From Planctomycetota bacterium (GTDB lineage: Bacteria > Planctomycetota > B15-G4 > SIAN01): a stretch of 64,000 bases of DNA. Positions within the stretch are counted from its first letter, which is position 1; each line of letters starts with the position of its first letter. Where the stretch lies: assembly GCA_036732755.1 (NCBI GenBank), contig DAINBU010000011.1:513-64512 (forward strand). The letters are read 5' to 3'. The notes beneath the pieces were generated by a model. That model ran no database searches, was not told the DNA's origin, and saw nothing but the letters and a program-made list of their open reading frames with translations. This document shows, in pieces, positions 4,346 through 40,297 of the stretch. A program made the translations under genes and the position numbers.

Positions 4346-4363
4346 GCGGGTCTTCAGACCCGC
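4346..4363. terminator. Second short hairpin in the same convergent gap (7-bp stem, TTCA loop)
   Basis: GCGGGTC-TTCA-GACCCGC pairs as a hairpin. Confidence 0.3.
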
Positions 4364-4494
4364 ATCGTCGGAGCCGCGCGTTCCCTCCTCGCCCTGGACG
4401 AACATCCCGTCGCCTCGCGACGGGGCTCGTGAACAACCCGGGCTGGTCGCGGGTCGAGCGCGCGACGGGCGAGAGCGGGTCGAGGGGCGGCGGA

Positions 4495-6993: not shown

Positions 6994-7124
6994 TTTCCTC
7001 GAGCGGTCTCTCCCCCCCTCTTCGCACGGCGACGCCGCCGACTTCGCAGCCGCTTCTCGGGTGGGAAAACCATTCGCACGCGCAGCGTGCGCCCGCGGCT
7101 CGACCCGGTTCCGGGGACCGCCGC

Positions 7125-23573: not shown

Positions 23574-24410
23574 ATGAAAAAGTGCGGCGTGGAACTCCGA
23601 TTCCGGCCAGACCTCGCGCCGATTCCCGTTCGGCGCCGGTCGACCGAGGCGGGCTTCGGGCTCATCGACTCGATGATCTCGATCGTCGTCATCTCGGTCT
23701 CCACGGTCGGCTTCCTCGCGGCGAGCGTCACCTCGATGTCGCTCGAGAAGGAGAGCCGGACCGTCGCGGCGGCGAACGAGATGTCGCGCGCCGTGGTCGA
23801 GCAGATGCTCGCGCTCCCGATCGAGCAGGTCCTCCCGACCTACAACGCCAACAAGGCCGACGACCCGAACGGCGCCGGCACGGCTTGCGGCTCGAGCTGG
23901 ACGATGGACACGACGACGGTGCTGCTCGCCACGGCCGACGACACGCTCGCCCTCAGTGCGTACCGGCTCGACAACAGCGGTCCGGGGAGCCTGAGCAGCG
24001 GGACCAGCGGCACCAGCGGCAGCGGCACCAGCGGCAGCGGCACCAGCGGCAGCGGCAGCCTCGTCGGCACCGTGGTCGGCACGACGCAGACCGTCCTGCA
24101 GACGGTCACCGGCACGACCACCGCCGTCGCCGACGCCGAGGCGTTCGAGGTCCCCAAGACCATGGACTGCAGCATCGGGCTGCCGACCACGCTCGACGCG
24201 GCCGGCAACGAGACGCTGCGCGAGGACATCGTCGCGCCCGAGTACGGGCTCCCGTGCGACCTGAACGGCGACGGCGTCATCGACAGCAAGAACCACGCGG
24301 CCGACTACAAGATCCTGCCCCTCGTGATCCGCCTCGACTGGCCGATCGCCGGCGGCGGCACGCGCACCGTGAGCTTCGCGGCCGTGCTCGGGGGAGGCAC
24401 GGCGCCATGA
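23574..24410 (+). CDS. Type IV pilus minor pilin, PilV-like, with prepilin-type N-terminal cleavage/methylation segment and Ser/Gly/Thr linker (set 1)
   Basis: Leader ...RRRSTEAG followed by [24 protein letters not shown], a G-F-x-L-I-[D/E] prepilin motif with D at +5. ATG at 23574 (MKKCG..). An alternative GTG lies at 23556. A tandem SGT repeat sits mid-protein. Confidence 0.65.
24003..24059 (+). repeat. In-frame tandem repeat, accagcggcagcggc x3 plus a partial unit
   Basis: Encodes [21 protein letters not shown] inside the PilV-like gene. It is a likely slippage-prone length-variable linker. Confidence 0.5.
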
Positions 24411-25042
24411 GTTCCCGACGCGGCGGCTTCATGCTCCACGAGCTCGCGGTCAACCTCGCGATGACGATGCTGCTGCTCGGCGGGCTCTTCCTCTTCCTGC
24501 GCTCCGGGATCGCGGGCAGCCAGATCACGACGGCGCGCGCGCTGCTCGAGCGCAACGCCAACTACGCGCTGCGCCAGATCACCGAGTCGCTGCTGCCGGC
24601 CGGCAAGGCGACCCTCGCGCCCGCCGCCGCGCCGCTCGGCAGCTCCTTCATGGACCTGCAGGTCCCGGTCGCGGTCGACCCCGAGGGCCCGACCTTCGGC
24701 CCGGTGACGCGCATCGAGTGGCGCCCCGATCCCAACGATCCGAATGACGGTGCCGACAACGACGGCGACGGGCTCACCGACGAGGGCGAGATCGTGATCT
24801 CGCGCAACTTCGGCTCGGCCGGCCAGCTGGACACGGTGATCGCGACGAGCGTCCCGCGCCTGCTGCTCGGCGAGGTGCAGAACGGCGCCGACGACAACGG
24901 CAACGGGCTGCAGGACGAGGCGGGGCTCTCCTTCGAGCGCCTCGCCGACGGATCGGTCCGCGTGCGCCTCACCGTGCAGGCGAGGAAGCAGAACACGACC
25001 TTCTCGCGCACGGTCGAAACCACGGTCCTCCCGCGGAACTGA
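24407..25042 (+). CDS. Type IV pilus minor pilin, PilW-like, with two DxDxDG calcium-binding-like loops (set 1)
   Basis: ATG overlaps the upstream stop (ATGA). GGGAGG lies 11 nt upstream. Short leader MSSRRG followed by GFMLHELAVNLAMTMLLLGG (classical prepilin site with Glu at +5). The C-terminal part contains DPNDGADNDGDGLTDEGE and NGADDNGNGLQDEAG. Confidence 0.7.
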   Translation: MSSRRGGFMLHELAVNLAMTMLLLGGLFLFLRSGIAGSQITTARALLERNANYALRQITESLLPAGKATLAPAAAPLGSSFMDLQVPVAVDPEGPTFGPVTRIEWRPDPNDPNDGADNDGDGLTDEGEIVISRNFGSAGQLDTVIATSVPRLLLGEVQNGADDNGNGLQDEAGLSFERLADGSVRVRLTVQARKQNTTFSRTVETTVLPRN

Positions 25043-25058
25043 ACGGAGCGACCCCTCC

Positions 25059-26462
25059 ATGCGACCCACCTCGAACGAAACGGGCAGCACGCTGGTCGCC
25101 TCGATCGCGACCGCCGTCGTCCTGGCCGGGCTCGGCGTCTCGCTGATCACCGTGGTCCGCTCCGGCAACCTCGACATCGCGCAGTCGCGCAACGACCTGC
25201 AGCGCCTCTACCTCGCCGAGTCGGCGGCGCGCCTGTCGCAGAACTCGCTGGCGGTCGGCGGCAGCGGCAACTTCGGCAGCGCCGCCAACCCGGTCCCGAT
25301 GGGCGCGGGCGCCTACTGGACGCGCGCCACCAAGAACGCCGACCAGACCATCGACATCGTCGCGAACGGCGTCTACGGCGGCGGCACGCGCGCGGTGCAC
25401 CTCACACTGCTCGACGCGCCGACCCTCTTCGACAACGCGATCTTCGCCGGCAACAGCGCGAAGGACCCCAACTACGCGATGCACTTCGGCGGCGTGGGCG
25501 CGCAGGGCGACCAGGTCAGCGGCGACATCTTCAGCGGGGGCGACATCGAGTTCGTCGACGACGCCAAGCTCGACGGCACGGCGCGCGCCTCGGGCAAGGT
25601 CACCGGCATCACCGGCGAAGGCGGCATCCAGGAGCCGGTCCCCGACCTCGCCGCGATGAACTACCCGACGATCGCCGACGTCGACGTCGCCATGCACCTC
25701 GCCGGCGCGACCGCGACCTACGCGTCGGGCACGCCGGGCGGCAAGGCGTGGCAGCTCCCCGAGTCCGACGCGGCCCACATCTTCCGCAAGAACCCGAGCG
25801 ACCGCGCCTCGATGACGTCGTCCACGTCCAAGGACGACTTCTTCCTCGAGGACCCGTACGAGACGATGCACACCGACCCGAAGTCGGACGGCAGCGACCC
25901 CTACATCGTCTCGCTCGCCGGCGTGGCGGGGAAACCGGGCAGCGACGGCAACCACAAGATCTACTACGTCGACGGCAACCTCTGGATCAACAACCCGTCG
26001 GCGATGTCGTTCCAGTTCGCGTCGAACGACGCGCTCGCCCTCACGATCGTGGTGAAGGGCAACATCTACATCGGCGACAACATCTTCTACAAGGACGCGC
26101 AGAACGACGGCCTCGTCCTGATCGCGATGAAGGACGGGGCGGTCAACGACAGTGGCAACATCTACTTCGGCGACCCGGCGTTCGGCACGCTCGAGAGCAT
26201 GAGCGCCTACATGTACGCCGAGAACAACTTCTACGACAGCAACCTGAACGCGACCGGCTCGGCGATCGTGAAGCTCCACGGGATGATGAGCGCCGGCAAC
26301 CAGGTCGCGATCAACCGCGACTACAACGGCCAGCACTCGCGGATGATGGTCACCTTCGATCCGCGCATCTCGACGGGCACGCTGGCGCTGCCGGGTCTTC
26401 CGAGGAGCGACCAGCAGGGTCTGACGTTCCTGGCGTGGGAGCCCGGCGCGTTGCAGCACTGA
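25059..26462 (+). CDS. PilX-like pilus assembly protein (PilX N-terminal domain plus large C-terminal region), set 1
   Basis: The N-terminus TGSTLVASIATAVVLAGLGVSLITVVRSGNLDIAQSRNDLQRLYLAESAARLSQ matches the PilX_N pattern. GGAG lies upstream. The protein is 467 aa. Confidence 0.7.
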   Translation: MRPTSNETGSTLVASIATAVVLAGLGVSLITVVRSGNLDIAQSRNDLQRLYLAESAARLSQNSLAVGGSGNFGSAANPVPMGAGAYWTRATKNADQTIDIVANGVYGGGTRAVHLTLLDAPTLFDNAIFAGNSAKDPNYAMHFGGVGAQGDQVSGDIFSGGDIEFVDDAKLDGTARASGKVTGITGEGGIQEPVPDLAAMNYPTIADVDVAMHLAGATATYASGTPGGKAWQLPESDAAHIFRKNPSDRASMTSSTSKDDFFLEDPYETMHTDPKSDGSDPYIVSLAGVAGKPGSDGNHKIYYVDGNLWINNPSAMSFQFASNDALALTIVVKGNIYIGDNIFYKDAQNDGLVLIAMKDGAVNDSGNIYFGDPAFGTLESMSAYMYAENNFYDSNLNATGSAIVKLHGMMSAGNQVAINRDYNGQHSRMMVTFDPRISTGTLALPGLPRSDQQGLTFLAWEPGALQH

Positions 26463-26516
26463 GCGAGGATCTTGGCGCGTCCCGCTGGCGGGGCGCATCC
26501 CTGGGGAGGGATCGAT

Positions 26517-27803
26517 GTGAGAGGGGTACTCACCATCCAGGCTTGGACGCTCCTGCTCGGGCTGTGCGGCCCGGCAGGACGCGCGCAGGCGCGCGATGGC
26601 GGCGACGCTACGGCGGCGGCGCGGCCGGCCGCGCTGCCCGCCGACGTCGCGCGCGCGGTCCGCGAGATCCTGCGCAACCGCGACGGCGCCGCCGACGAGG
26701 TGCAGGTCGCGCGGCTGGTCGCGCTCGGCGAGCCGGCGGTGGCGCCGCTCTTCGCGCTCGCCGTCAGCGCGCCGGCCGTCGAGGCGGAGACGGGCTCCGA
26801 CGGGCAGCGCCTCGCGCTCGCGGCCCTGAAGGCGCTCCCCCCCGTCGCGGTCGACTCCTTCGTCGCGGCCGCGGCGGCGCGCACCGCGGACCTCGAGATC
26901 TCGCTGCCGATCGTGACGCTGGCGGGCGACCTCGGCCGCGCCTCGTCGCTCGAGCTCATGCGGTGCACCGTCGCGGCGCTGCCGCCGCCGCTGCGCGACC
27001 ACCCGGTCCTCGGCGGCACGCTGCGCAGTTCGCTCGTGAAGGTGCTGCGCGCCGACGTCGCCGCGCCGCGCGCGCTGCCCGCCTTCGCCGCGGCGCTGCC
27101 GGCCGACCTCTCGCGCTTCGTCTTCGACGCGATCCACGAGGTGCGCGGCGCCGAACGCGTCGCGCTGCTGTCGGCGCTGCTCGGCCGGCGCGACGAGTGG
27201 GACGTCGCGATCGTCGCCGAGCTCGACGCCGTCCCGCCGCGCGACGAGGCGGGCTGCGCCGCCGTCGCCGAGCTGCTGCGCGCGCATGCCGGCGACCGCT
27301 CGTCCGAGATGCGCCGCCAGGTCGCCGAATCGCTGCGCCGCTACCCCTCGCCCGAGTCGGTGCAGGCGCTGATCGGGCTGCTCGACGACGGCGACGCGCG
27401 CGTGGAGCAGGTGGCGAAGCGCTCCCTCGCCACCGCGACCGGAGCGTGCGTCCCCGCCGCCGCCGACCGCTGGCGCGCCTGGCTCGAGTTCGAGGAGCGC
27501 TGGCTCGCCGACCAGTGGCCCGCCGTCGAGGCGTCGCTCGACTCCCGGAAGCCGCAGGAAGTCCTGAAGTCGCTCGCGCTCCTCGGGCGAAAGAGGGTGC
27601 ACGGAGCCGTCGTCGGGCGCGCCGTCGCGGCGGTGCTGCGCCATCCGCGGCCGGAGTTGCGCATGGCGGCGTGTGACGCGCTGGAGCGGCTGGGGAGCTC
27701 GATCGGCCAGGCCGACGCGCGCGAGCTCTTCGCCGACGACCCCGATCCGCGCGTCCGCGCCAGCGCCCGGCGCCTCCTCGCCCGGATGGGAGTCGAGCCG
27801 TGA
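26517..27803 (+). CDS. Secreted HEAT/PBS-lyase-like repeat protein
   Basis: Start is GTG at 26517 with GGGGAGGG 7 nt upstream, giving MRGVLTIQAWTLLLGLCGPAGRAQA-RDG, a signal peptide. Repeated HEAT-like units include ..LRHPRPELRMAACDALERLG.. and DDPDPRVRASARRLLARMG. The track start (TTG 26472) is less likely. Confidence 0.65.
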   Translation: MRGVLTIQAWTLLLGLCGPAGRAQARDGGDATAAARPAALPADVARAVREILRNRDGAADEVQVARLVALGEPAVAPLFALAVSAPAVEAETGSDGQRLALAALKALPPVAVDSFVAAAAARTADLEISLPIVTLAGDLGRASSLELMRCTVAALPPPLRDHPVLGGTLRSSLVKVLRADVAAPRALPAFAAALPADLSRFVFDAIHEVRGAERVALLSALLGRRDEWDVAIVAELDAVPPRDEAGCAAVAELLRAHAGDRSSEMRRQVAESLRRYPSPESVQALIGLLDDGDARVEQVAKRSLATATGACVPAAADRWRAWLEFEERWLADQWPAVEASLDSRKPQEVLKSLALLGRKRVHGAVVGRAVAAVLRHPRPELRMAACDALERLGSSIGQADARELFADDPDPRVRASARRLLARMGVEP

Positions 27804-28456
27804 AGCCCGTCGAGCCCGCGCCGCGCGACCCCGAGAACGACGACCGCCGGCGGCGATCCCTCGTCGACCACGAGATGCAGCTGCGCCTCGTCTCGCGCCT
27901 GATCGTCGTGCTGACCGCCAACCTCGCGCTCTTCGTCGCGCTGGCGATCGTGATGCCGGCCGCGGTCGGCTGGTTCGGCGGCGCGCCGCGCTGGGGCGTC
28001 TTCGAGTCGATGCGCCGCTTCGACGTGCTCGCGACCGCCGTCCTGCTGCCGCTCGCCTGCTCGTTCCTCTGCTTCTTCGGCCAGGGCGTGCGCGAGACGC
28101 AGAAGATCGCCGGGCCGAGCTACCGCTTCCGCGCCGTCTTCCGCGAGCTCGCCGCGCTCCGCATCCCGCGCGGCGTGAAGGTCCGCAAGGGCGACTACCT
28201 GCAGTCGACCGCGAGCGAGCTGAACGGCTCGCTCGAGCGGCTGCACGACGAAGTGGCGACGCTGCGGCGCATCGCGCGCGACGGCGCCGCGGCCGAGCCC
28301 GAGGACGCCCGGCGGGCGCTCGACGAGCTCGCGCGGCGGCTCGACGCGTTCACGCTGCTCTCGTGCGCGCCCGAGTGCCGCGTCCTCGCCGACGCGCCGG
28401 CCGCGCCGGCCGCGCCGGTCGCCGAGCTCGTCGAGGCGGAGGCCGTCGCGAGCTGA
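27800..28456 (+). CDS. Membrane protein (2 transmembrane helices) with a cytoplasmic coiled-coil-like tail
   Basis: GTG start overlaps the upstream stop (GTGA). GGGAG lies 10 nt upstream. Helices LIVVLTANLALFVALAIVMPAAVGWF and VLATAVLLPLACSFLCFF are followed by a charged helical region. Confidence 0.6.
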   Translation: MKPVEPAPRDPENDDRRRRSLVDHEMQLRLVSRLIVVLTANLALFVALAIVMPAAVGWFGGAPRWGVFESMRRFDVLATAVLLPLACSFLCFFGQGVRETQKIAGPSYRFRAVFRELAALRIPRGVKVRKGDYLQSTASELNGSLERLHDEVATLRRIARDGAAAEPEDARRALDELARRLDAFTLLSCAPECRVLADAPAAPAAPVAELVEAEAVAS

Positions 28457-28485
28457 CCCGGCCGCGTGCGCGGTGCCGCGCGCGG

Positions 28486-28970
28486 TTGCTCCGCGCCGCC
28501 GCCGCGGCGAGACTCGCGCGGAATGATTCCTCGCGCGAGCTCCCGTCGTTGAGCGCCTCCCTGCACGCCCTCGAGCCGCACGCGCTCTCCGCGACCTTCC
28601 TCGTCACGCTGCTCGCGCAGCTCGGGCTGCCGATCCCCGCCGAGCTCCTGCTCCTCGCGACGGGCGCGCTCTCGGCCGACGGGTCGCCGGCGCGCGCGCT
28701 CTCTCCTACGCCTGGAACGCGCTCGGCGCGCTGCGGATGCGGCCGGAGGAGCTCCCCGACCGCCACGGCGAGATCCCGCGCGATCGTGAAGTGGTTCTCT
28801 ACTGCAGCTGCCCCAACGAGGTGACGAGCGCTCAGGTGGCGCTCCGGCTCCAGCGGCACGGCATCGCGCGCGTCCGGCCGCTGCTCGGCGGTTTCACCGC
28901 CTGGCTCGAGCGCGGACTTCCCCTCGCGGCGGCGAGCGAGGGGATTCGCAGCGCCGTCCCGCTCAGGTAG
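28486..28970 (+). pseudogene. Degenerate remnant of a DedA-family (VTT domain) and rhodanese fusion gene: DedA N-terminus in one frame, rhodanese C-terminus in another
   Basis: From TTG at 28486 the frame encodes ...SLHALEPHALSATFLVTLLAQLGLPIPAELLLLATGALSADG, the conserved DedA N-terminal motif. It then degrades into Arg/Ser/Pro nonsense. From about 28690 a different frame encodes ..YAWNALGALRMRPEELPDRHGEIPRDREVVLYCSCPNEVTSAQVALRLQRHGIARVRPLLGGFTAWLERGLPL, the C-terminal half of a rhodanese fold with a non-canonical active-site loop. The junction sits on a (GC)n run. Confidence 0.35.
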
Positions 28971-29013
28971 GTTGCCCGCCCGGCCCGCGCCCAACCCCGC
29001 TGGAGTCGAGACG

Positions 29014-31257
29014 ATGAACCGTTCCGCGCATCTTCCGGCTCTCCTCGTCGTCCTGGCCGCGACCTCGCCCGCGGCCCTCGCGAACGGCTGGCAGCCGCTC
29101 ACGAATCAGCCGCCCGTCAACGCCAGCACGCTCTACCTCCTGATGGACGGGCGCGTGCTGATGAACGAGTACTTCAGCGAGCACTGGTGGGTGCTCACGC
29201 CCGACGCGAGCGGCAGCTACCTGAACGGGACCTGGTCGCAAGTCCAGGACGCTCACGACGACCGCCTCTACTACGCGTCGAGCGTGCTCGCCGACGGCCG
29301 CGTGCTGATCGCCGGCGGCGAATACAGCAACACGGGAGGCGGGAGCGCGGCGGAGATCTACAACCCGGTGACGGACACCTGGAAGGCGATCGGGCCGCCG
29401 ACCGGCTGGGGCTACATCGGTGACGCGCCCTCGACCCTGCTCGCCGACAAGCGCTTCTTCATCGGGAACATCCAGGACAACCGCACGGCGCTCTGGGATC
29501 CGGTGACGAAGGCGTGGTCGGCCGGCCCCGCGATCCTCGGCACGGCGAGCGCCGAGGAGACCTGGGTGCTGCTGCCCGACGACACCATCGTCACGCCCAA
29601 GTGCTTCGACCACCCCGATTCGGAGCTCTTCGACCCGGTGGCGAACGCGTGGGTCGACACCGGCAACCTCGCCGCCGACATCGTCGACGGCATCTTCGAG
29701 ATCGGACCCGGCATGGCGCTCAACGACGGCCGCGCCTTCATCCTCGGCGCCACGGCCCACACCGCGCTCTACACGATGAACGGCACGCCCGGAGGCGTCG
29801 GCACCTGGGCGGCCGGACCCGACATGCCCGTCCTCGGCGGCAGGCAGATGGTCGCGTCCGACGCGCCCGCCGCGATGCTGCCGAACGGAAACATGCTCTG
29901 CGCGCTGGCCGACTACTGGACGCCGCCGGTCCACTTCTACGCGTTCGACGGGACGAGCTTCACTCGCAGGCCGGATCCCGGCAACAACGGCGGGACGCCG
30001 TACGACGGCCGCATGCTCCTGCTGCCGACCGGCGAAATCCTCTACGCGAACGTCACGATCTACCTCTACTCGGGCAACGGCAGTCCCGACCCGTCGTGGA
30101 AGCCGACCATCACCGCGGTCGCCACCGACCTCCTGCCCGCCACCGATTACCTCCTCGAAGGCACGCAGCTGAACGGCCTCACCACCTCCAGCAGCTACGG
30201 CGACGAGTGCAACGTCTCGACCAACTATCCGCTGGTCCGCCTCACGTTCACGAACAGCGGCCACGTCGCCTACATGCGCGCCCACGATCCGAGCACGATG
30301 GGCATCGCGACCGGCGCGACGATCGTCTCGACCCATTTCGAGGTGCCGGCGACCGTCGAGAAGGGGCCGGCGAAGCTCGAGGTCGTCGCGAACGGCATCG
30401 TCTCCGACCCGGTCGACGTCGTCGTCCGCGACCCGATCACGATCGACTTCGACGCGCTGGCGACCCCAGTCGTGGTGACCACGCAGTTCGCCGAGGCGAC
30501 CTTCTCGGCGCCGGCCGGCTCGGACAACGTGACGGTCGCCCTCGCCGCCGGCAGCTCGCAGCCCAACGTGATCGAGACGGAACCGGTCGGCGGCCCGCCC
30601 GACGGGACGCGCGACACGTACGTCGACTTCCCCTGCCCGGTCGGCTCGCTCTCCTTCAGCGCGGTCGCGGTCGACAACGTCGGCCCGGTCGCGAACGTGA
30701 ACGTCTACGAGTCGGGCGTCCTCACCGCGACGCTCGCGGTCGAGGGGGCCGGCACGCCGACGGTGCCGGTGCGCGTCGACCTCACCTCCTACAACAACGT
30801 GACGCGCGTCGAGATGGTCGGCATCACCGACGCGAGCGGGCTCGGCTGGGACGACTTCGTCTTCTGCCTCGGCTCGTCGGCAGCGTGGGCGAACTACGGG
30901 AGCGGCTTCGCGGGCACGTTCGGCGTGCCGTCGCTCGTCGCGCAGAATCGTCCGATCCTGGGCGGCCCGCTCGTCCTGGACGTCGGCAACTCGCTCGGTG
31001 CGCCGACGACGGCGCTGCTCGTCCTCGGCCTGGCGCAGGCGTCGATCCCGACCAACAAGGGCGGGACGATCCTCGTCGCGCCGGCCCTCTGGATCCCGCT
31101 CGCGCTGCCGGCGGGCGGCCTCTCGGTCGCGGGTTCGGTGCCGAACGACCCGCAGCTCTGCGGCCTCGCCGCCGACTTCCAGGCGCTCGAGCTCGACGCC
31201 GGCGCCGCCTTCGGGATCTCGTTCACCGCCGGACTCGAACTGCACCTCGGATACTGA
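29014..31257 (+). CDS. Secreted kelch beta-propeller protein of the glyoxal-oxidase/galactose-oxidase-like family (propeller plus DUF1929-like Ig domain) carrying the same unassigned C-terminal domain as the FG-GAP protein
   Basis: ATG at 29014 gives MNRSAHLPALLVVLAATSPAALANG, a signal peptide. Kelch-like blades have W/Y-rich motifs (LYYASSVLADGRVLIAGGEY, ALWDPVTKAWSAG, ..). An Ig-like segment follows (PAKLEVVANGIVSDPVDVVV). The last ~115 aa align with the C-terminus of the 577..2268 protein. Confidence 0.8.
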   Translation: MNRSAHLPALLVVLAATSPAALANGWQPLTNQPPVNASTLYLLMDGRVLMNEYFSEHWWVLTPDASGSYLNGTWSQVQDAHDDRLYYASSVLADGRVLIAGGEYSNTGGGSAAEIYNPVTDTWKAIGPPTGWGYIGDAPSTLLADKRFFIGNIQDNRTALWDPVTKAWSAGPAILGTASAEETWVLLPDDTIVTPKCFDHPDSELFDPVANAWVDTGNLAADIVDGIFEIGPGMALNDGRAFILGATAHTALYTMNGTPGGVGTWAAGPDMPVLGGRQMVASDAPAAMLPNGNMLCALADYWTPPVHFYAFDGTSFTRRPDPGNNGGTPYDGRMLLLPTGEILYANVTIYLYSGNGSPDPSWKPTITAVATDLLPATDYLLEGTQLNGLTTSSSYGDECNVSTNYPLVRLTFTNSGHVAYMRAHDPSTMGIATGATIVSTHFEVPATVEKGPAKLEVVANGIVSDPVDVVVRDPITIDFDALATPVVVTTQFAEATFSAPAGSDNVTVALAAGSSQPNVIETEPVGGPPDGTRDTYVDFPCPVGSLSFSAVAVDNVGPVANVNVYESGVLTATLAVEGAGTPTVPVRVDLTSYNNVTRVEMVGITDASGLGWDDFVFCLGSSAAWANYGSGFAGTFGVPSLVAQNRPILGGPLVLDVGNSLGAPTTALLVLGLAQASIPTNKGGTILVAPALWIPLALPAGGLSVAGSVPNDPQLCGLAADFQALELDAGAAFGISFTAGLELHLGY

Positions 31258-31289
31258 CGAAACTTCCCGTCGGACGTCGGCCTCGATCC

Positions 31290-31326
31290 GCCGCCGGAGC
31301 GCGCCTCGCCGCCGCGCTCCGGCGGC
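31290..31326 (+). terminator. Strong GC hairpin (14-bp stem, 9-nt loop) 33 nt after the kelch gene stop, followed by TCCATTTCC
   Basis: GCCGCCGGAGCGCG-cctcgccgc-CGCGCTCCGGCGGC is a perfect 14-bp inverted repeat. It sits between the kelch gene and the downstream minor-pilin operon. Confidence 0.4.
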
Positions 31327-31497
31327 TCCATTTCCGGCGCCGCGCGCAAGGAAAGTGGAGACGTTTTCCGTCCGGCCTGCGGCCGGCTCAGTCGCTCATC
31401 GGCGCTTCCGAAGCTCCGGATGCCCCCCGACGGCCCGCGCGAGCCCACGGATCGGCTCGGACCGCGGCCCCCGGCCCGGGGAAACACGGAAAGCGCT

Positions 31498-31920
31498 GTG
31501 ACCCCCACCTCGGATGCACACCTTCGGACTGCCGGGCGACGGCGCGCGCGCGCCGGGCTCACCTTCGTCGAGATCATGATCGCCACGACCATCCTCGCCG
31601 TCGGCGCCCTGGTCGCGTTCCCGACCATGCTCTCCTTCGCCGACCTCTCCGACACGGCGCGCGAGGAGAACGTCGCGACGCACGACCTGATGACCGCCGT
31701 GGAGGACGTGATGAGCACGCCCTTCACGCAGATCACGTCGACCTACAAGGCGGGCGAGCCGATCCCCCGCTTCACCGCCCTCCACCTCAAGGAGGAGTCG
31801 ATCGTCGTCACCTACGACGATCCGGCCGCCGACCCGCTGGTCATCACGATCACGGCGACGTGGAGGGATCGCAAGGGCCACCCGATGCAGGAGACGTTCC
31901 GATGCGCTCGCACGCGCTGA
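31498..31920 (+). CDS. Type IV pilus minor pilin, PilV-like (set 2)
   Basis: Prepilin segment ...RRRARAG-LTFVEIMIATTILAVGALVAFPTML with Glu at +5. Start is proposed as GTG at 31498 (leader MTPTSDAHLRTAGRRRARAG). An alternative ATG at 31420 would give a 46-aa leader. Confidence 0.6.
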   Translation: MTPTSDAHLRTAGRRRARAGLTFVEIMIATTILAVGALVAFPTMLSFADLSDTAREENVATHDLMTAVEDVMSTPFTQITSTYKAGEPIPRFTALHLKEESIVVTYDDPAADPLVITITATWRDRKGHPMQETFRCARTR

Positions 31921-32660
31921 ACGCCCGCTGCCGCGGCCGCGCCACGCGCGGGCACACTTTCGTCGAGATGATGATCGTGCTCTGCACGATGACCATCGTG
32001 CTCGGCGGCGTGATGCAGATCATGAAGGGCGCGCGCGATTCCTGGCAGCTCACCGGCTCGAAGTCGCGGCTGCAGGAGTCGGGCCGGCGCATGCTCGAGA
32101 AGATCGCCGCCGATCTGCGCAAGAGCGGGCTCACCAACGTCGCCGGCCAGAACTACCCGGCGATCTGGGAGCGGCAGCTCGGTCCCGAGAACACGCCGCG
32201 CGGCCCGCTCGTCGCGACCATGAACTACTCCGACGAATCGCTCGTGAACGAGGTCTTCGCCTGGAACGGCGTCGGCGACCACATCACGCGCAACGCCAAC
32301 CGCGTGGCCGACGAGATCGTCTTCCAGCTCCCGCAGGACCTCGACGGCAACGGCACGCCGCTCGACGCCAACGGCGACCTCGAGTGGGGCGCGCAGCTCT
32401 TCTCCTACCGCGTCGTGCAGGACGCGGAGGGCCGCCCCTGGCTCTACCGCAACACCGACGTCGGCGGCGTGCTCACCGAGCAGCGGCCGATCGGCTCGTC
32501 GGTCCGGTCGATCACCTTCGACGTCGTGTTCAACGACCGCTCGCTGCGGTTCGGGAACGTCGACATCGTGATCTATCTCGAGGAGACGAACGCCAACGGC
32601 CAGCGCGTGACCGCGGAGGTCGAAGGCTCGGTCAACCTGCGCAACACGAAGGAACTGTGA
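31902..32660 (+). CDS. Type IV pilus minor pilin, PilW-like (set 2)
   Basis: ATG at 31902 with GCAGGAG 8 nt upstream. It overlaps the upstream gene by 19 nt. Leader MRSHALNARCRGRATRG is followed by HTFVEMMIVLCTMTIVLGGVMQIMKGARDSWQLTGSKSRLQESGRRMLEKIAADLRKSGL, which fits the PilW N-terminal pattern. Confidence 0.7.
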   Translation: MRSHALNARCRGRATRGHTFVEMMIVLCTMTIVLGGVMQIMKGARDSWQLTGSKSRLQESGRRMLEKIAADLRKSGLTNVAGQNYPAIWERQLGPENTPRGPLVATMNYSDESLVNEVFAWNGVGDHITRNANRVADEIVFQLPQDLDGNGTPLDANGDLEWGAQLFSYRVVQDAEGRPWLYRNTDVGGVLTEQRPIGSSVRSITFDVVFNDRSLRFGNVDIVIYLEETNANGQRVTAEVEGSVNLRNTKEL

Positions 32661-32674
32661 GCGGAGCCGTACCC

Positions 32675-34420
32675 ATGATGCACCCCCGGAACTCCCGACC
32701 CCCGAGGATCGCCGCGCGCAGGAACCAGCGCGGCACCGTGCTGCTGGTCGCGCTCACGGCCGTCGTGATCATCGCGGCGTTCGCCGCGGCCCTGCTCACC
32801 AGCTCCCAGGCGGAGCTGAGGCAGGCGAAGACGACGCGCGCCGTCTCCGACGTGCGCACGCTCGCCGAGGGCGCGACGGTCGCGGCAGAGCACGCCGTGC
32901 TGGTCGCGGTCGCGAACACGATCGCGCCGCCGGCCTCCGGCACGCTCCACCACGGCCCGCACGACGTCCCGTGGACGACGCAGCACATCGGCACCGACAC
33001 GGTCGAGACCGACGCCGTCGGGATCCAGACGATCCACCAGCACTGGCTGGTGCAGGCGACGGCCGACGCGACGCCCTTCAAGCACACGGTGAACCGCGTG
33101 CTCGACATCGGCCTCACGCCGATCTTCCAGTACGCGATCTTCTACAACGAGGACCTCGAGCTGCTGCCGGGCCCGTCGATGACGATCTCCGGCCGCGTGC
33201 ACACCAACAAGGACCTCTTCGTCGGCGTCGGCGCCGGCAACACGCTCACGATCAAGTCGGACTACTTCCGCTCGGTCGGCGACATGTTCCGCATGCGCAA
33301 GGACGACGGCTCGCTCACGTCGGGCAGCGTCAAGATCCAGAAGAGCGGCACGACGTCGCTCTACGACATGTGGAGCGAGAGTCAGTTCAAGTCGAAGGGC
33401 GTGCCGAGCACGAGCGGCTTCGACAGCCAGTTCAAGGGCTTCGACGCGAACGGCGACGGCGACCTCTCCGACCTCGGCGACTGGCCCGACTTCGCGGTCG
33501 GCGCGCTGTCGACCTGGGGCGGCACGGTGCAGTCGGCCGACCACGGCGTGAAGACGGTCGAGCCGCCGTCGATCGGCTCGATCAAGCGCTTCCAGAACGT
33601 CGGCGCCGGCAACGGCGACTACGCCTGGAACGCCACGCTCAAGGACTACGCCTACGTCGGCATGGGCAGCGGCGACTCGACCAAGGGGCGCTACCACGCC
33701 GCCGCCGACCTCGTGATCCGCGACCTCACCGCCTACGACGCCAAGGGCAACGTGGTCTCGATGCCGACGGGCGCGATCGCGCCGCGGAGCTTCTACGACG
33801 CGCGCGAGGGCAAGACCGTCACCGTCACGCAGATCGACATCAAGATCCTGCGCGAGAACGGCCTGCTGCCGGTGAACGGCGCGATCTACGCGTCGCGCTC
33901 CGACACGACCGTCTCGCAGCCCAACGGCATCCGTTTGGTGAACGGCTACGAGCTCGGCCAGCCGCTCACCGTCATCTCCGAGGACCCGGTCTACGTCCGC
34001 GGCGACTACAACACGACGAACAAGAAGCCGGCCGCCGTCATCGCCGACGCGGTGAACCTGCTCTCGAACTCCTGGGACGACAAGAAGACCAAGGGCACGC
34101 TGCCGACCGCCAAGGCGACCACCTTCGACTTCGCGATGATCACCGGCGGCGACGAGACCGGCGGCGCGGGCTACTCGAACGGCTTCGAGAACCTGCCGCG
34201 CTTCCACGAGAAGTGGGACGGGATCGCCTGCGCGATCCTCGGCTCGTTCGTGAAGATCTACGCCTCCGAGTTCGCCAAGGGCAAGTGGGTCTACGGAAGC
34301 GACCGCTACACGGCGCCCGTGCGCCTGTGGGACTACGACACCGCCTTCAACAAGATCGAGAACCTCCCGCCCTTCACGCCGAACGTCGCGCAAGTGCGCA
34401 ACTCCGGCTGGTGGGATTGA
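32675..34420 (+). CDS. PilX-N-domain large pilus-associated protein (set 2), 581 aa
   Basis: ATG at 32675 with GGAG 9 nt upstream. The N-terminus QRGTVLLVALTAVVIIAAFAAALLTSSQAELRQAKTTRAVSDVRTLAEGA matches the PilX N-terminal pattern. The rest is an ordinary-composition beta-rich domain. The first 97 codons of track ORF 32384..34420 are Arg-rich shadow. Confidence 0.7.
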   Translation: MMHPRNSRPPRIAARRNQRGTVLLVALTAVVIIAAFAAALLTSSQAELRQAKTTRAVSDVRTLAEGATVAAEHAVLVAVANTIAPPASGTLHHGPHDVPWTTQHIGTDTVETDAVGIQTIHQHWLVQATADATPFKHTVNRVLDIGLTPIFQYAIFYNEDLELLPGPSMTISGRVHTNKDLFVGVGAGNTLTIKSDYFRSVGDMFRMRKDDGSLTSGSVKIQKSGTTSLYDMWSESQFKSKGVPSTSGFDSQFKGFDANGDGDLSDLGDWPDFAVGALSTWGGTVQSADHGVKTVEPPSIGSIKRFQNVGAGNGDYAWNATLKDYAYVGMGSGDSTKGRYHAAADLVIRDLTAYDAKGNVVSMPTGAIAPRSFYDAREGKTVTVTQIDIKILRENGLLPVNGAIYASRSDTTVSQPNGIRLVNGYELGQPLTVISEDPVYVRGDYNTTNKKPAAVIADAVNLLSNSWDDKKTKGTLPTAKATTFDFAMITGGDETGGAGYSNGFENLPRFHEKWDGIACAILGSFVKIYASEFAKGKWVYGSDRYTAPVRLWDYDTAFNKIENLPPFTPNVAQVRNSGWWD

Positions 34421-35448: not shown

Positions 35449-36960
35449 ATGTCGTCCCGCTCGCTGCAACCGCTGCCGGTCGGCTTCCACGGCGATCGCC
35501 ACCTCCTGCGCCTGATCGACCTGCTTGCCGCGCGGGCGCACACGTTCCTCGAGACCGGGTCGAACGTCGGCTCGACGCTCGGCTACGTCGCGCGCCGCTT
35601 CCCCGCTCTCGACTGCATCTCGTGCGAGCCCGACCCCGCGGCGCACGCCGTCGCGGCGGAGCACGCGTGCGTGCGGCCGGGCGTCGCGCTCCATCGCGAG
35701 ACGTCGCAGGAGCTGCTGCGCCGCCTTGCCCGCGACCACGTGCCGTCGCTCGCGAAGCCGCTGCTCGCGTGGCTCGACGCGCACGACCACGGATTCGAGT
35801 GGCCGCTGCGCGACGAGGTCGCCTTCCTCACGGGCCGGTGTGCGCGCGGCTTCCTGTTGATCGACGACTTCCGCGTGCCGCACGATCCGCGCTTCGGGTG
35901 GGACAGCTACGACGGCCGCCACTGCAGCTTCGAGTACGTCCGCGACTCGATCGCGCCCGACGTCCACTGGCGCCTCTACTACCCGGCCTATTCCGAGCAC
36001 ACCTCGCCCCACCATCCGCTGCGCGGCTGGGGGCTCCTGCAGTTCGACCGGAACTCCGCGCAGCTCGAGCCCCTGGAAGACGAGCTCTCCGAGGTGTGCC
36101 GCTTCGCGTGCGAGGGCGGGCCGGCGCCGACGCCCGTCCCGTCGTCCGAGCTCCTGCAGGCCGCGCTCGCGACCTTCGCACGGGTCCTCGAAGTCGAGCC
36201 GCGCAACGCCGTCGCCCGGCAGAGCTGGAAGGCGCTTTTTCAGGCACTGCACCCCGCGCCGGCCGGCGACGCGCGGCCGCTCCCGATCGCCCCCGGCGCC
36301 TGGGGCCGCATGGCGCGGCGCGATCCCTACGACGACCTGCGCGACCTCGTCTCGATCGAGCGACCGACGATCGTCGACGGCGGCGCCAACCGCGGCGACA
36401 CGGTCGCGCGGCTGCGCGCGCTCTTCCCCGACGCGCCGATCCACGCCTTCGAGCCGATCGAGGAGCTCGCGCGGGCGATCCGGACGCGCTTCGCGGACGA
36501 CCGCGCGCTGGTGGTCCACGCCGCCGCGCTCGCCGCGGAGAGCGGCGCGGCGACCTTCCACCGCCTCCAGGCCGACGTCACCTCGTCGCTCCTGACGCCG
36601 AGCGCGCTCAAGCGCCGCTACCACGGCGAGCGCGTCGACGTCGCCGCGTCCGACGAGGTCCTGACGCTCGCCCTGGCCGACGTCCTCGACCGGCCGATCG
36701 ACGTCTTGAAGCTCGACCTCCAGGGCGCCGAGCTCGCGGCGCTGCGCGGCCTGCGCGAGCGGATCGCCGACGTGCGCGTGGTCCTGACCGAGGTCGAATT
36801 CGCGCCGCTCTACGACGGGCAGCCGCTCTTCGGCGACCTCGACGTCCATCTGCGCGGCGCGGGCTTTCGCCTGTTCCACCTCTACGACGTCTGGAGCCAC
36901 CCCGACGGCCAGATCACGTCGGGCGACGCGCTCTACGTGAACGGGCGGTTCTTCTCGTGA
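35449..36960 (+). CDS. FkbM-family methyltransferase (two-domain)
   Basis: The C-terminal half has the FkbM motif TIVDGGANRGDT and AFEP. The N-terminal half is a second methyltransferase-like fold (LETGSNVGST). Confidence 0.75.
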   Translation: MSSRSLQPLPVGFHGDRHLLRLIDLLAARAHTFLETGSNVGSTLGYVARRFPALDCISCEPDPAAHAVAAEHACVRPGVALHRETSQELLRRLARDHVPSLAKPLLAWLDAHDHGFEWPLRDEVAFLTGRCARGFLLIDDFRVPHDPRFGWDSYDGRHCSFEYVRDSIAPDVHWRLYYPAYSEHTSPHHPLRGWGLLQFDRNSAQLEPLEDELSEVCRFACEGGPAPTPVPSSELLQAALATFARVLEVEPRNAVARQSWKALFQALHPAPAGDARPLPIAPGAWGRMARRDPYDDLRDLVSIERPTIVDGGANRGDTVARLRALFPDAPIHAFEPIEELARAIRTRFADDRALVVHAAALAAESGAATFHRLQADVTSSLLTPSALKRRYHGERVDVAASDEVLTLALADVLDRPIDVLKLDLQGAELAALRGLRERIADVRVVLTEVEFAPLYDGQPLFGDLDVHLRGAGFRLFHLYDVWSHPDGQITSGDALYVNGRFFS

Positions 36961-37922
36961 GCGCGCCGCTGCGCGTCGCCTTCGTCGACTTCTGGCCCGG
37001 CTTCGCGCCGGCTGACTTCACGGTGCGCTTCGCCGAGTTCGGCGAGGCCGCGGGAGCCGGCGGCTGCGAGGTCGTCGCCGACGCGCGCGCCGCCGACCTC
37101 GTGGTCGCCTCCTGCTTTCCGGACGGGCAACGGACGACGCGACCCCGCGACCCGAGGACGACGGCCGGCGCCCGCGGCGTCCGCCTGTTCTGGACCGGCG
37201 AGAACGTCCGCCCCGACTTCTCGACCTGCGACTTCGCCCTCTCGTTCTGCCGCGACCTGGTCGATCCGCGCCACTTGCGCGTTCCGAACTACGTCGGCCT
37301 CCACCGTGTGCACGGGCTCGCCGCGGACCTCTACGCGCCCCCCGCCGATCCCGCGGCGCTGCTGCGCGGCAAGACGCGCTTCTGCGCCTACGTCCAGAAG
37401 AATCGCGTCGCGATGCGCGAGGAGTTCGTGCGCGCTCTCTCCCGCCGCCGCCGCGTCGACTGCGCCGGCCCGTCGCTCAACAACATGCCCTTTCCCGCCG
37501 AGCGCGGCGCCAAGTACTCCCTCTACCGCGAGAGCAAGTTCGCGATCGCCTTCGAGAACGAGGCGGCCGCCGGATACACGAGCGAGAAGCTGCCCGACGC
37601 GCTGCTCGGCGGCTGCGTCCCGGTCTACTGGGGCGACCCGACCGTCGCCCGCGACTTCCACCCGGGCTGCTTCCTCGACCGGCGCGACTTCGCGAGCGAC
37701 GCGGAGCTGATCGAACGGATCCTCGCGCTCGACCGCGACGACGCGGCCTACGTCGCGCTGCTGTCGGCGCCGCGCCGCCCCGCGCGGCCGCTGCGCGACG
37801 GCACCGACCCCTCGACGCTGCGTCGCTTCTTCGCAGAGGTCGTCGCGGCGGCGCGCGCCGCGACCGGACGCGGAACGTCGGCCGCGCCGCTCGCGCCGCT
37901 CACTCCGACCGGGAGTGCGTGA
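36957..37922 (+). CDS. Glycosyltransferase family 10 (alpha-1,3-fucosyltransferase-like)
   Basis: GTG start overlaps the upstream stop (GTGA). It carries the GT10 signature KFAIAFENEAAAGYTSEKLPDALLGGCVPVYWGD. Confidence 0.8.
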   Translation: MSAPLRVAFVDFWPGFAPADFTVRFAEFGEAAGAGGCEVVADARAADLVVASCFPDGQRTTRPRDPRTTAGARGVRLFWTGENVRPDFSTCDFALSFCRDLVDPRHLRVPNYVGLHRVHGLAADLYAPPADPAALLRGKTRFCAYVQKNRVAMREEFVRALSRRRRVDCAGPSLNNMPFPAERGAKYSLYRESKFAIAFENEAAAGYTSEKLPDALLGGCVPVYWGDPTVARDFHPGCFLDRRDFASDAELIERILALDRDDAAYVALLSAPRRPARPLRDGTDPSTLRRFFAEVVAAARAATGRGTSAAPLAPLTPTGSA

Positions 37923-40297
37923 TGCGCGACTGCATCGTCCTCGGCTCGGGGCGCAGCGGCACCAGCATGGTCGCCGGCGCGCTCGCCAAGGCCGGGTACT
38001 TCATGGGCGACCGCCTCTACCCCGCGCGCGACGCCAACCCGCTCGGCTTCTTCGAGGCGCCCGAGATCAACGCCATCAACGAGGAGCTGCTCGCGCCGCG
38101 CGTCCCCGCCGCGCAGCGCCTCGCCGCCCCGCAGCGCTGGCTCGCCCGCCTCGACGCGACCGTCGACGCGGCGCCCGAGCCGCTGCGCCGTCGCATGCGG
38201 GCGCTCGTCGCGCGCGCCCCGTTCTGCTTCAAGGACCCGCGCTTCTGTTACACGCTGCCGGCATGGCGCGGCGAGCTCGGCGACGCCTGTTTCGTCGTCG
38301 TCTTCCGCGACCCGGCCGTCACCGCTGCGAGCATCGTGCGCGAGTGCGCCGCCGCCGACTACCTCGCCGGCGTCGAGATGGACGCGGCGCGCGCGCTCGC
38401 GACGTGGTGCGCCATGTACCGCCAGGTGCTGCGCCAGTACCGCGAGGCGGCGCCGCACGAGCGCGCACGCTGGCTCTTCGTCCACTACGACCAGATGGTC
38501 GGCCGCGACGCGGACGGCGCGGCGCGCCTCGCCCGCCACCTCGACGCGCCGGTCGACGCCGCCTTCCCGGACGAACGGCTCCGCCGCTCGAAGCCGGCCG
38601 CCGTGACGAGCGACGAGGCGGCGCAGCTCTACCGGGAGCTGTGCGAACTCTCCGGTTTTTCGCCGGCGCACGGCGCCGTCCGATCCGCCGCGGCGGCGTG
38701 CCCCGCCCCCGCCGCGCCCGAGATCTCGGTCCTGATCTGCACCTGGAAGCGCCGGGAGACGCTCGTCGAGTGCCTGTTGAGCTTCGCGAACCAGACCCTC
38801 GCGCCCGAGCGCTTCGAGCTGGTCGTCGTCGTCGACGAGGCGGGAGACGGCAGCGCCGAGGCGGTCCGCTCGCTCGCGACGCGCCTGCCGCTGCGGCTGA
38901 TCCACCGCACGACCAACGGCGGGCTCGCGTCGGCGCGCAGCGCCGCCGTCGCCGCCGCGCGCGGCGAATGGATCCTCCTCGTCAACGACGACACGATCGC
39001 GTTCCCCGACCTGCTCGAACGCCACTTGGACGCCCACGCGCGGCGCGCGCCGGCGCCCGTCTCCGTGCTGGGCACCTTCGAGCAGCCGCCCGAGCAGCTC
39101 GCGACCGGACTGATGCGCGCGCTCGAGCGCTCCCACCTCGTCTTCGGCTACGCCGGGCTGCGGCCCGGCGTCGACCACGACTGGACGAAGTTCTGGGGCT
39201 GCAACGTGAGCGCGCCGCGCCGCGAGGTGATCGCCGCCGGCTCCTTCGACGCCTGCTTCCACCACTACGGCTGCGAGGACACCGACCTCGGCATCCGCCT
39301 CCACCAGCGCGGGCTGCCGGTCGTCTTCGAGCCGGCCGCGCGCGCGTGGCACCGCCACGTCCTCTCGCTCGACGACCTCTTGCGCCGCCAGGGGACGGTC
39401 GCGCGCGCCTACGTCCGCCTCTTCGCCAAGCACCCCGCCGCGCTCGCGCGCTCGCCGTTCGCGTCGATGCTGCACGCCTCGGTCGCGTCGCTCACCGAGG
39501 AGCGGCGCCGCATGGAGGGGACGGTCGAGCGCCTCCTTCCCGTGGTCCGACAGCTCGCCGAGCTCGACTGCGCCACGCTCGACGCGCTGGGTGGGCCGCT
39601 GCGCAGCGCTGCCGCGGACGCCGTCGAGGGGCTGAAGCAGATCCTGCAGAAGATCGACCCCCACCACTGGGCCGGCGGCTTCCTCGAAGGGCTCGCCGAC
39701 TTCGGCGTCGCGAGCTTCCGCGAGCTGGCGCAGTGGCGCGGCGCGGCGCCGGCCGACGCGACGATGCACGGCGCACCGCCATGGCCCCTCGCGTCGGACG
39801 CGCCGTTCAAAGTGCTTCTGTGGCCCGACTGGAGCGACGAGGGCGAGCTCTCCGCGATCGTCGCGCTCGCCGACGACGCGCGCCTCGCCGCGCCGCCCTG
39901 CCTCGTGCTGCGCTTCGAGCGCACCGACGGCGATCTCGCCGCGGCGATCGCCCGCTTCGAGCGCGTGTGCGCGCGCCGTGCCGCCGGCGCGCCCGAGCTC
40001 GACGTCGTGGTCGTCGACGAACCGCTCCCACCCGAGGCATTCCCGAGGCTCGGCCGTGCCGTCGCGTGCGCGCTGCTCCTGCCGTCGTCGTTCCGCGGCG
40101 AGCGCCACCGTTTCTTCGCCCGCGTCGGGAGCTCGGGCGTGCGCGGCGCCGAGGACCTGCTCGCCTTCGTGCCGGCGGCTCCGGACGGCGCACCGCGTCA
40201 GGTCGAAGCGACGGGATCCGGCGAAGAAGTCGGCGCGACACGCGTTGCGAGCCAGCGGCGCGCCGCCGACTTCTCGAGATCGCGCAGCCCCGCGTAG
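37922..40297 (+). CDS. Sulfotransferase-like N-terminal domain fused to a GT2 glycosyltransferase domain, with a C-terminal extension
   Basis: ATG overlaps the upstream stop. CIVLGSGRSGTSMVAGALAKAGY resembles a PAPS-binding sulfotransferase P-loop. ISVLICTWKRRETLVECLLSFANQT...VVVVDEAGDGS is a GT2 motif. The last ~100 nt overlap the convergent GT2 gene. Confidence 0.7.
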   Translation: MRDCIVLGSGRSGTSMVAGALAKAGYFMGDRLYPARDANPLGFFEAPEINAINEELLAPRVPAAQRLAAPQRWLARLDATVDAAPEPLRRRMRALVARAPFCFKDPRFCYTLPAWRGELGDACFVVVFRDPAVTAASIVRECAAADYLAGVEMDAARALATWCAMYRQVLRQYREAAPHERARWLFVHYDQMVGRDADGAARLARHLDAPVDAAFPDERLRRSKPAAVTSDEAAQLYRELCELSGFSPAHGAVRSAAAACPAPAAPEISVLICTWKRRETLVECLLSFANQTLAPERFELVVVVDEAGDGSAEAVRSLATRLPLRLIHRTTNGGLASARSAAVAAARGEWILLVNDDTIAFPDLLERHLDAHARRAPAPVSVLGTFEQPPEQLATGLMRALERSHLVFGYAGLRPGVDHDWTKFWGCNVSAPRREVIAAGSFDACFHHYGCEDTDLGIRLHQRGLPVVFEPAARAWHRHVLSLDDLLRRQGTVARAYVRLFAKHPAALARSPFASMLHASVASLTEERRRMEGTVERLLPVVRQLAELDCATLDALGGPLRSAAADAVEGLKQILQKIDPHHWAGGFLEGLADFGVASFRELAQWRGAAPADATMHGAPPWPLASDAPFKVLLWPDWSDEGELSAIVALADDARLAAPPCLVLRFERTDGDLAAAIARFERVCARRAAGAPELDVVVVDEPLPPEAFPRLGRAVACALLLPSSFRGERHRFFARVGSSGVRGAEDLLAFVPAAPDGAPRQVEATGSGEEVGATRVASQRRAADFSRSRSPA

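Follow-up and report, generated by a model that had tools for sequence, protein, structure and literature searches.

Two three-gene pilin-like cassettes, candidate tip modules of a type IV filament, in a Planctomycetota genome

Large pilin subunits with an inserted β-solenoid have been described from Thermus and from cyanobacteria. They are the closest counterparts of the products of two gene sets that we analyzed in a 64,000-nucleotide stretch of a Planctomycetota genome (GenBank assembly GCA_036732755.1, contig DAINBU010000011.1, positions 513 to 64,512; this whole stretch is hereafter called the window), each set encoding two small pilin-like proteins and a large third subunit. ComZ of Thermus thermophilus is a GspK-like pilin that carries a β-solenoid between its penultimate and last strands; it binds the neighboring pilin PilA2, has been argued to cap the pilus tip, and has a pilin domain closest to that of GspK (PMC6561018). 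Cyanobacterial PilX proteins share this β-solenoid architecture, HpsA-like members being classed as PilX_EPS, and the solenoid has been proposed to stand in place of the PilY1 plug; HpsA-D, as cited in the same study, were initially reported as a system for polysaccharide secretion (bioRxiv 10.64898/2026.02.12.705559). The design itself is already known from these two systems. On the evidence presented below, the planctomycete sets are probably two distinct minor-pilin tip or priming modules of a type IV filament, with the machine itself encoded at other sites in the genome.

Other systems are more distant. The FimU-PilV-PilW-PilX-PilY1 sets of type IVa pili in Pseudomonas and Myxococcus resemble the present ones in that several alternative minor-pilin sets occur per genome, with a presumed role in priming or at the tip. 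They consist, however, of four minor pilins, including a small PilX, and a separate PilY1 β-propeller adhesin (PMC7541494), whereas the sets described here have three pilin-like genes, no PilY1 or FimU, and a large protein at the PilX position. An initial interpretation made from the letters alone, without database searches (hereafter the sequence-only reading), had likened the locus to the duplicated minor-pilin cassettes of M. xanthus; that analogy holds for the presence of several alternative sets and is otherwise loose, the Thermus ComZ and cyanobacterial sets being closer. Verru_Chthon cassettes A-D (TIGR02596-TIGR02600) are likewise multi-copy prepilin-type cassettes of bacteria of the Planctomycetes-Verrucomicrobia-Chlamydiae (PVC) superphylum; we found no paper on them, and their function is uncharacterised. 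To our knowledge, little has been established about the genetics of planctomycete pili, and a literature search found nothing on them.

Two ordered trios of pilin-like genes

Six pilin-like genes form two operon-like trios on the + strand. Set 1 consists of g1 (23574..24410, 278 aa), g2 (24407..25042, 211 aa) and the large-subunit gene g3 (25059..26462, 467 aa); set 2 consists of h1 (31498..31920, 140 aa), h2 (31902..32660, 252 aa) and a second large-subunit gene, h3 (32675..34420, 581 aa). Because the window has a G+C content of ~72%, raw lists of open reading frames (ORFs) are full of spurious frames. Genes were called from third-position GC (GC3) frame plots, with g1 placed by its GC3 frame and g2 by a motif scan, and were cross-checked against calls made independently for near-identical public contigs, one from ENA and one from NCBI (GCA_036786945.1). 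Both lines of evidence support the two ordered sets proposed in the sequence-only reading. The junctions are operon-like, as had also been proposed, because g1 and g2 share an ATGA overlap, h1 and h2 overlap by 19 nt, and g3 and h3 follow spacers of 14–16 nt with GGAG-like sites. Set 1 indeed continues into g4 (26517..27803, + strand, 428 aa), which has a GTG start with a GGAGG site and encodes an exported HEAT-repeat protein, and then, through a GTGA overlap, into g5 (27800..28456, + strand, 218 aa, GC3 frame), which encodes a small membrane protein with two hydrophobic segments. Gene order in both trios matches pilV-pilW-pilX, and also gspI-gspJ-gspK. The scanned window genes gave no PilY1-type Pfam match, in agreement with the claim that neither set is followed by a PilY1-like gene. 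A consensus scan for promoters and terminators found nothing beyond shuffled expectation.

The sequence-only reading had assigned a class III G...E signature to all six proteins, which proved correct for three. Glu is present at +5 in g2 (MSSRRGG/FMLHELAV, GFMLHE), h1 (...RRRARAG/LTFVEIM, GLTFVE) and h2 (...RGRATRG/HTFVEMM, GHTFVE). The g1 leader (...RRRSTEAG/FGLIDSM) has Asp, not Glu, at this position (GFGLID), a feature common to its closest relatives (G-x-G-L-[IV]-D). The N-termini of g3 (G/STLVA) and h3 (G/TVLLV) are hydrophobic helices with no acidic residue at +5. Absence of Glu5 is the norm for GspK and PilX tip subunits. A strict scan of the 64 kb (G-x4-[E/D/Q] plus a hydrophobic segment) recovered g1, g2, h1 and h2 as the four pilin-like ORFs, together with two minus-strand matches that both lie within long unrelated ORFs. 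The class III signal peptide of type IV pilin-like proteins was identified by motif in g2, h1 and h2 and by hidden Markov model (HMM) in h1, the only one of the six to pass the cut-offs of Pfam N_methyl (PF07963; 1.8e-5, 24.6 bits, cut-off 21.2) and TIGR02532 (17.0 bits, cut-off 16.3).

Large position-3 subunits and their small partners

AlphaFold2 models of g3 and h3, built from family alignments, reached pLDDT values of 86.9 and 90.2, respectively. In both, a long helix at the N-terminus is followed by an antiparallel sheet of four strands and then by a large domain built from many short strands, and the chain closes with one further strand at the C-terminus. DSSP assigned this order as helix 9-65, strands 79-119, β-rich domain 128-433 and last strand 455-463 in g3, and as helix 19-80, strands 88-149, β-rich domain and last strand 570-580 in h3. 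In Foldseek searches against the PDB, Thermus thermophilus ComZ (6qvi) was the best match for g3 (E=1.2e-10, probability 1.0) and for h3 (E=3e-7, probability 1.0), and it was the sole significant structural match for either protein. With the insertion point read from the DSSP strand order, the models predict that g3 and h3 are β-solenoid tip pilins of the ComZ type. This fits the suggestion of the sequence-only reading that the oversized third gene might substitute for a PilY1-like tip protein, the same role that has been proposed for cyanobacterial PilX.

The resemblance to Thermus ComZ-PilA2 extends to an N-terminal hydrophobic helix, a GspK-like sheet, a β-solenoid of ~300-400 residues before the last strand, a large protein encoded beside small minor pilins, and a tip at which no PilY1 is needed. 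Identity to ComZ, however, is 8-16%; the Thermus locus has pilA1-4 and comZ where there are three pilin-like genes here; and the conserved HEAT-repeat partner of set 1 is not described for the Thermus locus.

A second link concerns h3, in which residues 472-561 matched positions 1327-1419 of the NCBIfam HpsA profile (NF038301) with E=2.8e-18. All 36 of the h3-family members scanned carry this HpsA C-terminal region (best E=6.5e-27). With a score of 65 bits against a 400-bit cut-off for a profile of ~1500 positions, the relation between h3 and HpsA is best read as a shared domain, not as equivalog membership. The g3 family (36 members scanned) gave no HpsA match and nothing meaningful in the profile scans. 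Like the cyanobacterial core sets (PilX_Com/PilX_EPS), the planctomycete genome combines two diverged sets, PilV-class partners and, in h3, the HpsA C-terminal region. The cyanobacterial sets comprise four pilins (PilX-PilV-PilW-FimT), whereas neither cassette here has a gene of the FimT/GspH class; moreover, cyanobacterial HpsA has ~1500 aa and h3 581 aa, and g3 is without an HMM link to the cyanobacterial families.

Against GspK (NF037980, cut-off 130 bits), h3 scored 12 bits, over its N-terminus only. N-terminal GspK matches were found in 9 of 36 h3-family members and 1 of 36 g3-family members, and the insert in both models is β-rich, not α-helical. When the g3 family profile was compared with PDB sequences, ComZ was matched non-significantly (E=0.34). 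At least 547 proteins share 45-60% identity within the g3 family, and its superfamily has 3204 representatives at E≤1e-3 (50% clustering).

At position 1, g1 matched the NCBIfam PilV model (TIGR02523) with E=7e-6 and 26.6 bits, and h1 with 15.5 bits, both under the cut-off of 52.2. At the family level (E≤0.01), PilV was matched by 29 of 41 members of the g1 family (best E-value 9.7e-8) and by 21 of 39 members of the h1 family (best 6.5e-12). XpsI was matched by 16/41 and GspI by 8/41 in the former, and GspI by 17/39 in the latter. Recurrence of these sub-threshold HMM matches in most family members points to the PilV/GspI class for position 1 of both sets; PilV equivalog membership is not reached by g1 or h1, and the class resemblance holds.

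Matches at position 2 were weaker. In the g2 family, 11 of 41 members matched Verru_Chthon cassette protein C and none matched GspJ; the h2 family matched Verru_Chthon C in 6/39, GspJ in 4/39 and HpsC in 2/39, and weak GspH matches were also among the results for these families. Comparison of the h2 family with Escherichia coli GspJ by hhalign gave a probability of 75% over 44 C-terminal columns and was non-significant. The weak Verru_Chthon matches were to protein B for g1/h1 and to protein C for g2/h2, all far under the cut-off (e.g., 16.7 vs 256.5 bits). The PilV, PilW and PilX_N domain identities given in the sequence-only reading were not recovered: Pfam PilX_N, PilW and PilV gave no match for any of the six proteins at E≤1, including PilW (PF16074) for g2 and h2 and PilX_N (PF14341) for g3 and h3. 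Among g3 homologs, P0175 has a precomputed PF14341 match and P0150 is named 'PilX N-terminal domain-containing' by NCBI. The sequence-only reading had also named assignment to T2SS pseudopilins (type II secretion system) as the finding that would speak against it; the matches split between PilV and GspI/XpsI/GspJ/GspK, all below cut-off, and decided the question neither way. The family alignments used were derived from protein searches (A1, A2) or from the ORFs that precede g3 and h3 homologs at 160 loci (A3-A6). Two further comparisons of the six family profiles were set aside: against single E. coli GspG-K and PpdA/B/C/YgdB sequences (hhalign) they revealed α1 similarity only and no discrimination, and against PDB sequences they gave only N-terminal-helix matches to assorted pilins and no classification.

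Several sequence features of the small pilins were also observed. In g1, an S/G/T linker is encoded by a perfect 15-nt tandem repeat (24005-24057; CAGCGGCACCAGCGG, 3.5 copies). The protein measures 273 or 278 aa among near-identical public contigs, a difference of exactly one 15-nt unit and the sole indel in ~19 kb, which otherwise differ by 12 SNPs. This suggests a repeat-number polymorphism in a surface-exposed linker. Loops of the DxDxDG type (EF-hand or thrombospondin-like) are conserved in the small pilins. g1 has a DLNGDGVID loop near its C-terminus (DLNGDGxID in the family). g2, whose C-terminal end is ...LPRN, has acidic DNDGDG and DDNGNG loops, which in its family read DNDGDG..DEG and DDNGNGLxDExG, with invariant columns, at g2 residues ~109-119 and 150-167. 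h2, which ends in ...NLRN, carries LPQDLDGNGTPLDANGD (PxDxDxDG in the family). Judged by their motifs, these loops might bind Ca2+, and they bring to mind PilY1 and GspG, which depend on Ca2+.

Conservation and genomic neighborhood

Homologs of the cassettes all come from metagenome-assembled genomes (MAGs) of uncultured Planctomycetota, with more distant relatives in Kiritimatiellia. Synteny was examined in ~160 fetched loci. Two pilin ORFs (~172 and 205 aa mature) lie upstream of the g3 homolog in 61 of 70 loci, and two (~125 and 180-260 aa) lie upstream of the h3 homolog in 39 of 52. A HEAT-repeat gene follows g3 homologs in ~80/86 loci, and g4 itself matched Pfam HEAT_2 (1.9e-10) and HEAT (8e-6); in the g4 family the N-terminus is a signal peptide or a single anchor and does not resemble that of a pilin. 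Set 2 has no conserved fourth gene, its most frequent other neighbor occurring in 7 of 80 loci. Cassettes of the set-1 type occur in two or more copies in at least 12 MAGs. Tandem arrangements include L065, in which g1-g2-g3-g4 occurs twice in a row (2365-10703), and L054 (7660-10907), one of the loci that have either the set-1-type cassette or the g3 homolog in two tandem copies.

The g5 protein has two hydrophobic segments, then IAGPSYRF and a coiled-coil-like tail, and matched no family in Pfam or NCBIfam scans. A gene for a protein with two transmembrane (TM) segments and IAGPxYRF follows g4 in ~11 of 70 loci and lies divergently upstream in ~5 more. Relatives beside set-1 cassettes were seen in L005, L008, L009, L012, L017, L029, L039, L046 and L077, and in L077 an MshE-type ATPase comes directly after this gene. 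The two TM segments with the IAGPxYRF motif are perhaps HAMP-like, and the protein may be a regulatory membrane partner. At the 3' end of g5 (28393-28422), a 9-nt repeat (CGCGCCGGC, 3.3 copies) lies in the Ala/Pro-rich tail, and the protein has 215 aa, not 218, in the near-identical contig L169, consistent with one 9-nt unit lost.

Between g5 and the next gene, the ~560 nt of 28457-29013 contain a rhodanese fragment (~28737-28970, 77 aa, weak Pfam match on an identical public contig) and, in another frame, a visible DedA-like N-terminal peptide; both are probable gene remnants. The gene that follows (29014-31257) encodes a secreted 747-aa kelch/galactose-oxidase-like β-propeller with extra C-terminal domains. 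It was considered as a PilY1 surrogate and rejected, being confined to close relatives (L006, L007, L087), with an unrelated gene at that position in L005. It is a lineage-specific gene outside the pilin system. Downstream of set 2, YebC (start 34581) is followed at 35449-41289 by a glycan-modification cluster, with genes for an FkbM methyltransferase, a GT10 fucosyltransferase, a sulfotransferase-GT2 fusion and an opposite-strand GT2. The cluster parallels the Nostoc hps locus (pseudopilins plus glycosyltransferases). As a candidate hps-like locus for exopolysaccharide (EPS) it was found beside none of 80 related set-2 loci and was treated as coincidental. Farther away, an apparent minus-strand operon (54185-63298) encodes a 1385-aa Ser/Thr kinase with a PknB-like N-terminus, a protein of 1519 aa that has no relative in the PDB, and a small protein with an FHA domain. 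The two large genes, at 54-63 kb, had been considered for pilus functions; the operon is unrelated to the pilin cassettes.

Tip modules and alternative explanations

Gene structure, pilin signatures, predicted folds, family conservation and synteny, all shown here, are most readily explained if the two sets are minor-pilin tip or priming modules. We favor this reading because four class III motifs and two GspK/PilX-style N-termini without Glu5 occur in two ordered trios; because PilV/GspI/XpsI matches recur at position 1, position 2 is homologous over its full length between the sets, and the confident models of position 3 are ComZ-like; because the HpsA region is present throughout the h3 family and HpsA-like proteins are PilX_EPS in cyanobacteria; and because the trios are conserved as units, with type IV filament genes beside the cassettes in some relatives.

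Based on these findings, we propose the following mechanism. Each module would consist of a small pilin of the PilV/GspI class, a mid-sized pilin at the PilW/GspJ position, and a large subunit without Glu5 at the PilX/GspK position. After processing by the prepilin peptidase, the three subunits would associate in the inner membrane, held together by their N-terminal helices, as a heterotrimer like that of GspI-J-K, which would nucleate polymerisation of the major pilin and remain at the filament tip. The non-Glu5 subunit would cap the tip, with its solenoid displayed as an adhesin, ligand receptor or plug, and such a solenoid-bearing cap would make PilY1 unnecessary. Use of a large subunit in place of PilY1, as already proposed for cyanobacteria, is plausible. 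The two modules may prime two alternative tips or filaments: set 2 is HpsA-like, the 'EPS type' in cyanobacterial terms, and set 1 is a separate ComZ-like family that would work with the exported HEAT-repeat protein, possibly a periplasmic chaperone or adaptor.

Several points weigh against this mechanism. The window has no major pilin, ATPase, platform protein, secretin or prepilin peptidase, and most related loci also lack them nearby. None of the six proteins passed a curated PilV, PilW, PilX_N, GspH/I/J/K or HpsA threshold. The class of position 2 rests on very weak matches, and its PilW/GspJ label comes mainly from gene position. TM-scores to ComZ are low (0.19-0.36), and the evidence from fold comes from predicted models. 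ComZ itself was not predicted to be a prepilin peptidase substrate (PMC6561018). Finally, each set has three pilin-like genes, compared with four in characterised priming complexes, which also include FimU/FimT/GspH.

The strongest competitor, which we nonetheless regard as unlikely, is that the cassettes encode GspI-J-K-like pseudopilin tip sets of T2SS-like systems, exporting protein or polysaccharide through a short periplasmic pseudopilus. The order of small, medium and large subunit, a large subunit without Glu5 and with an inserted domain, and a three-subunit core are all shared with GspI-GspJ-GspK (with GspH). Family members match GspI/XpsI, GspJ and GspK N-terminal models; the relation of the ComZ pilin domain to GspK and the first description of HpsA-D as a secretion system point the same way, as do glycosyltransferase genes 1-7 kb downstream of set 2. 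However, PilV is the commonest and best match at position 1, the ComZ and HpsA/PilX_EPS relatives function with type IV pili, set-2 cassettes have no conserved glycan genes as neighbors, and the Gsp scores are far under cut-off. Moreover, the insert of GspK is α-helical and lies at another position of the fold (PMC6561018).

Filament machinery was sought in the window and in 166 related loci (1.9 Mb, ≤22 kb each). E. coli GspC, D-M and O queries (phmmer; GspA/B not queried) found no match in the window, and the sets lie in no gspC-M context: the pseudopilins are not placed among gspC-D-E-F-L-M genes. Nor did the scanned window genes include the PilY1-containing priming set of type IVa pili, in which PilY1 stands beside four minor pilins. 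Homologs of E, F, G, D and O are scattered in ~10 of the 166 loci, within a few kb, and GspC, GspL and GspM were never found in these 1.9 Mb, which argues against type II secretion. GspE/PilB-family ATPases with an MshE-type c-di-GMP-binding N-terminus, present in L011, L059, L077, L136 and L141, have nearly equal GspE and PilB scores. L011 encodes a GspF/PilC platform protein that scores higher as GspF (291 bits) than as PilC (231 bits), together with a GspG-like pilin, in favor of T2SS. Conversely, PilT adjoins g3 homologs in L052 and L054 with 451 bits against a cut-off of 319, and the secretin in L145 scores slightly higher as PilQ than as GspD. L162 has a prepilin peptidase and three GspG-like pilins. 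Found in a few relatives, this neighboring machinery is suggestive of a tie between the cassettes and type IV filament systems, with a leaning to retractile pili. A pilus is more likely than a type II secretion pseudopilus.

It is considerably more doubtful that g3 and h3 are membrane-anchored β-solenoid adhesins or enzymes that are not built into a filament. Neither has an acidic +5 residue or passes a pilin HMM, one g3 homolog is annotated 'polymer-forming cytoskeletal protein', and the β-solenoid domain weakly resembles β-solenoid adhesins, ice-binding proteins and tapirin, the next Foldseek matches after ComZ, all non-significant. Yet the predicted long helix and four-strand sheet are pilin-like, no structure other than ComZ was matched significantly, a pair of prepilin genes lies strictly linked upstream of them in most loci, and a missing Glu5 is usual for GspK/PilX tip subunits.

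The sequence-only reading had called the two sets paralogous, which stands at the level of profiles and fails for recent paralogs. By hhalign, homology extends along the whole length for the g2 and h2 families (99.6%, E=4e-24), over ~190 N-terminal residues only for g3 and h3 (97.8%, E=7e-13, 18% identity), and over the α1 region only for g1 and h1 (E=1e-19; cross-position controls were weaker, at 4e-13 and 4e-9). Close paralogy is rejected because BLASTP similarity between set 1 and set 2 ends at the N-terminal helix. These profile comparisons point to a common ancestral three-gene design in two old, diverged families. The families are normally unlinked: set-1 and set-2 cassettes are co-located only in this lineage and at two other loci of ~160, and in the MAG GCA_028289345.1 the contig with set 2 is distinct from those bearing its two set-1 cassettes. 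A recent local duplication around the kelch gene, giving redundant copies of one tip complex, could account for the shared gene order and strand, the distance of 5 kb and the homology at all three positions, but it is scarcely credible given this divergence, the broad distribution and synteny that each family has of its own, and a HEAT partner for set 1 only.

If the cassettes are tip modules, a wider scenario can be offered tentatively: the split of β-solenoid PilX into ComZ-like and HpsA-like lineages, lately put forward for cyanobacteria, may be ancient and reach the PVC superphylum. Planctomycetota might then build pili free of PilY1 from minimal priming complexes of three pilins, and the ComZ-like lineage might have gained an obligatory exported HEAT-repeat protein as a hitherto unrecognised fourth component of the tip module, with the 2-TM IAGPxYRF protein in addition in some lineages. 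What is new is the recognition of two widespread, unannotated cassette families of Planctomycetota, their three-pilin make-up, and the near-obligatory HEAT partner of the ComZ-like family. This conserved protein represents a new accessory factor that is open to testing. Practical value lies mainly in annotation, as the genes are currently 'hypothetical'. Widespread and often multi-copy, the cassette families provide concrete candidates for the pilus tip and the start of pilus assembly in Planctomycetota, and they would extend the ComZ/HpsA-type solution, in which a β-solenoid pilin replaces PilY1, beyond Deinococcota and cyanobacteria.

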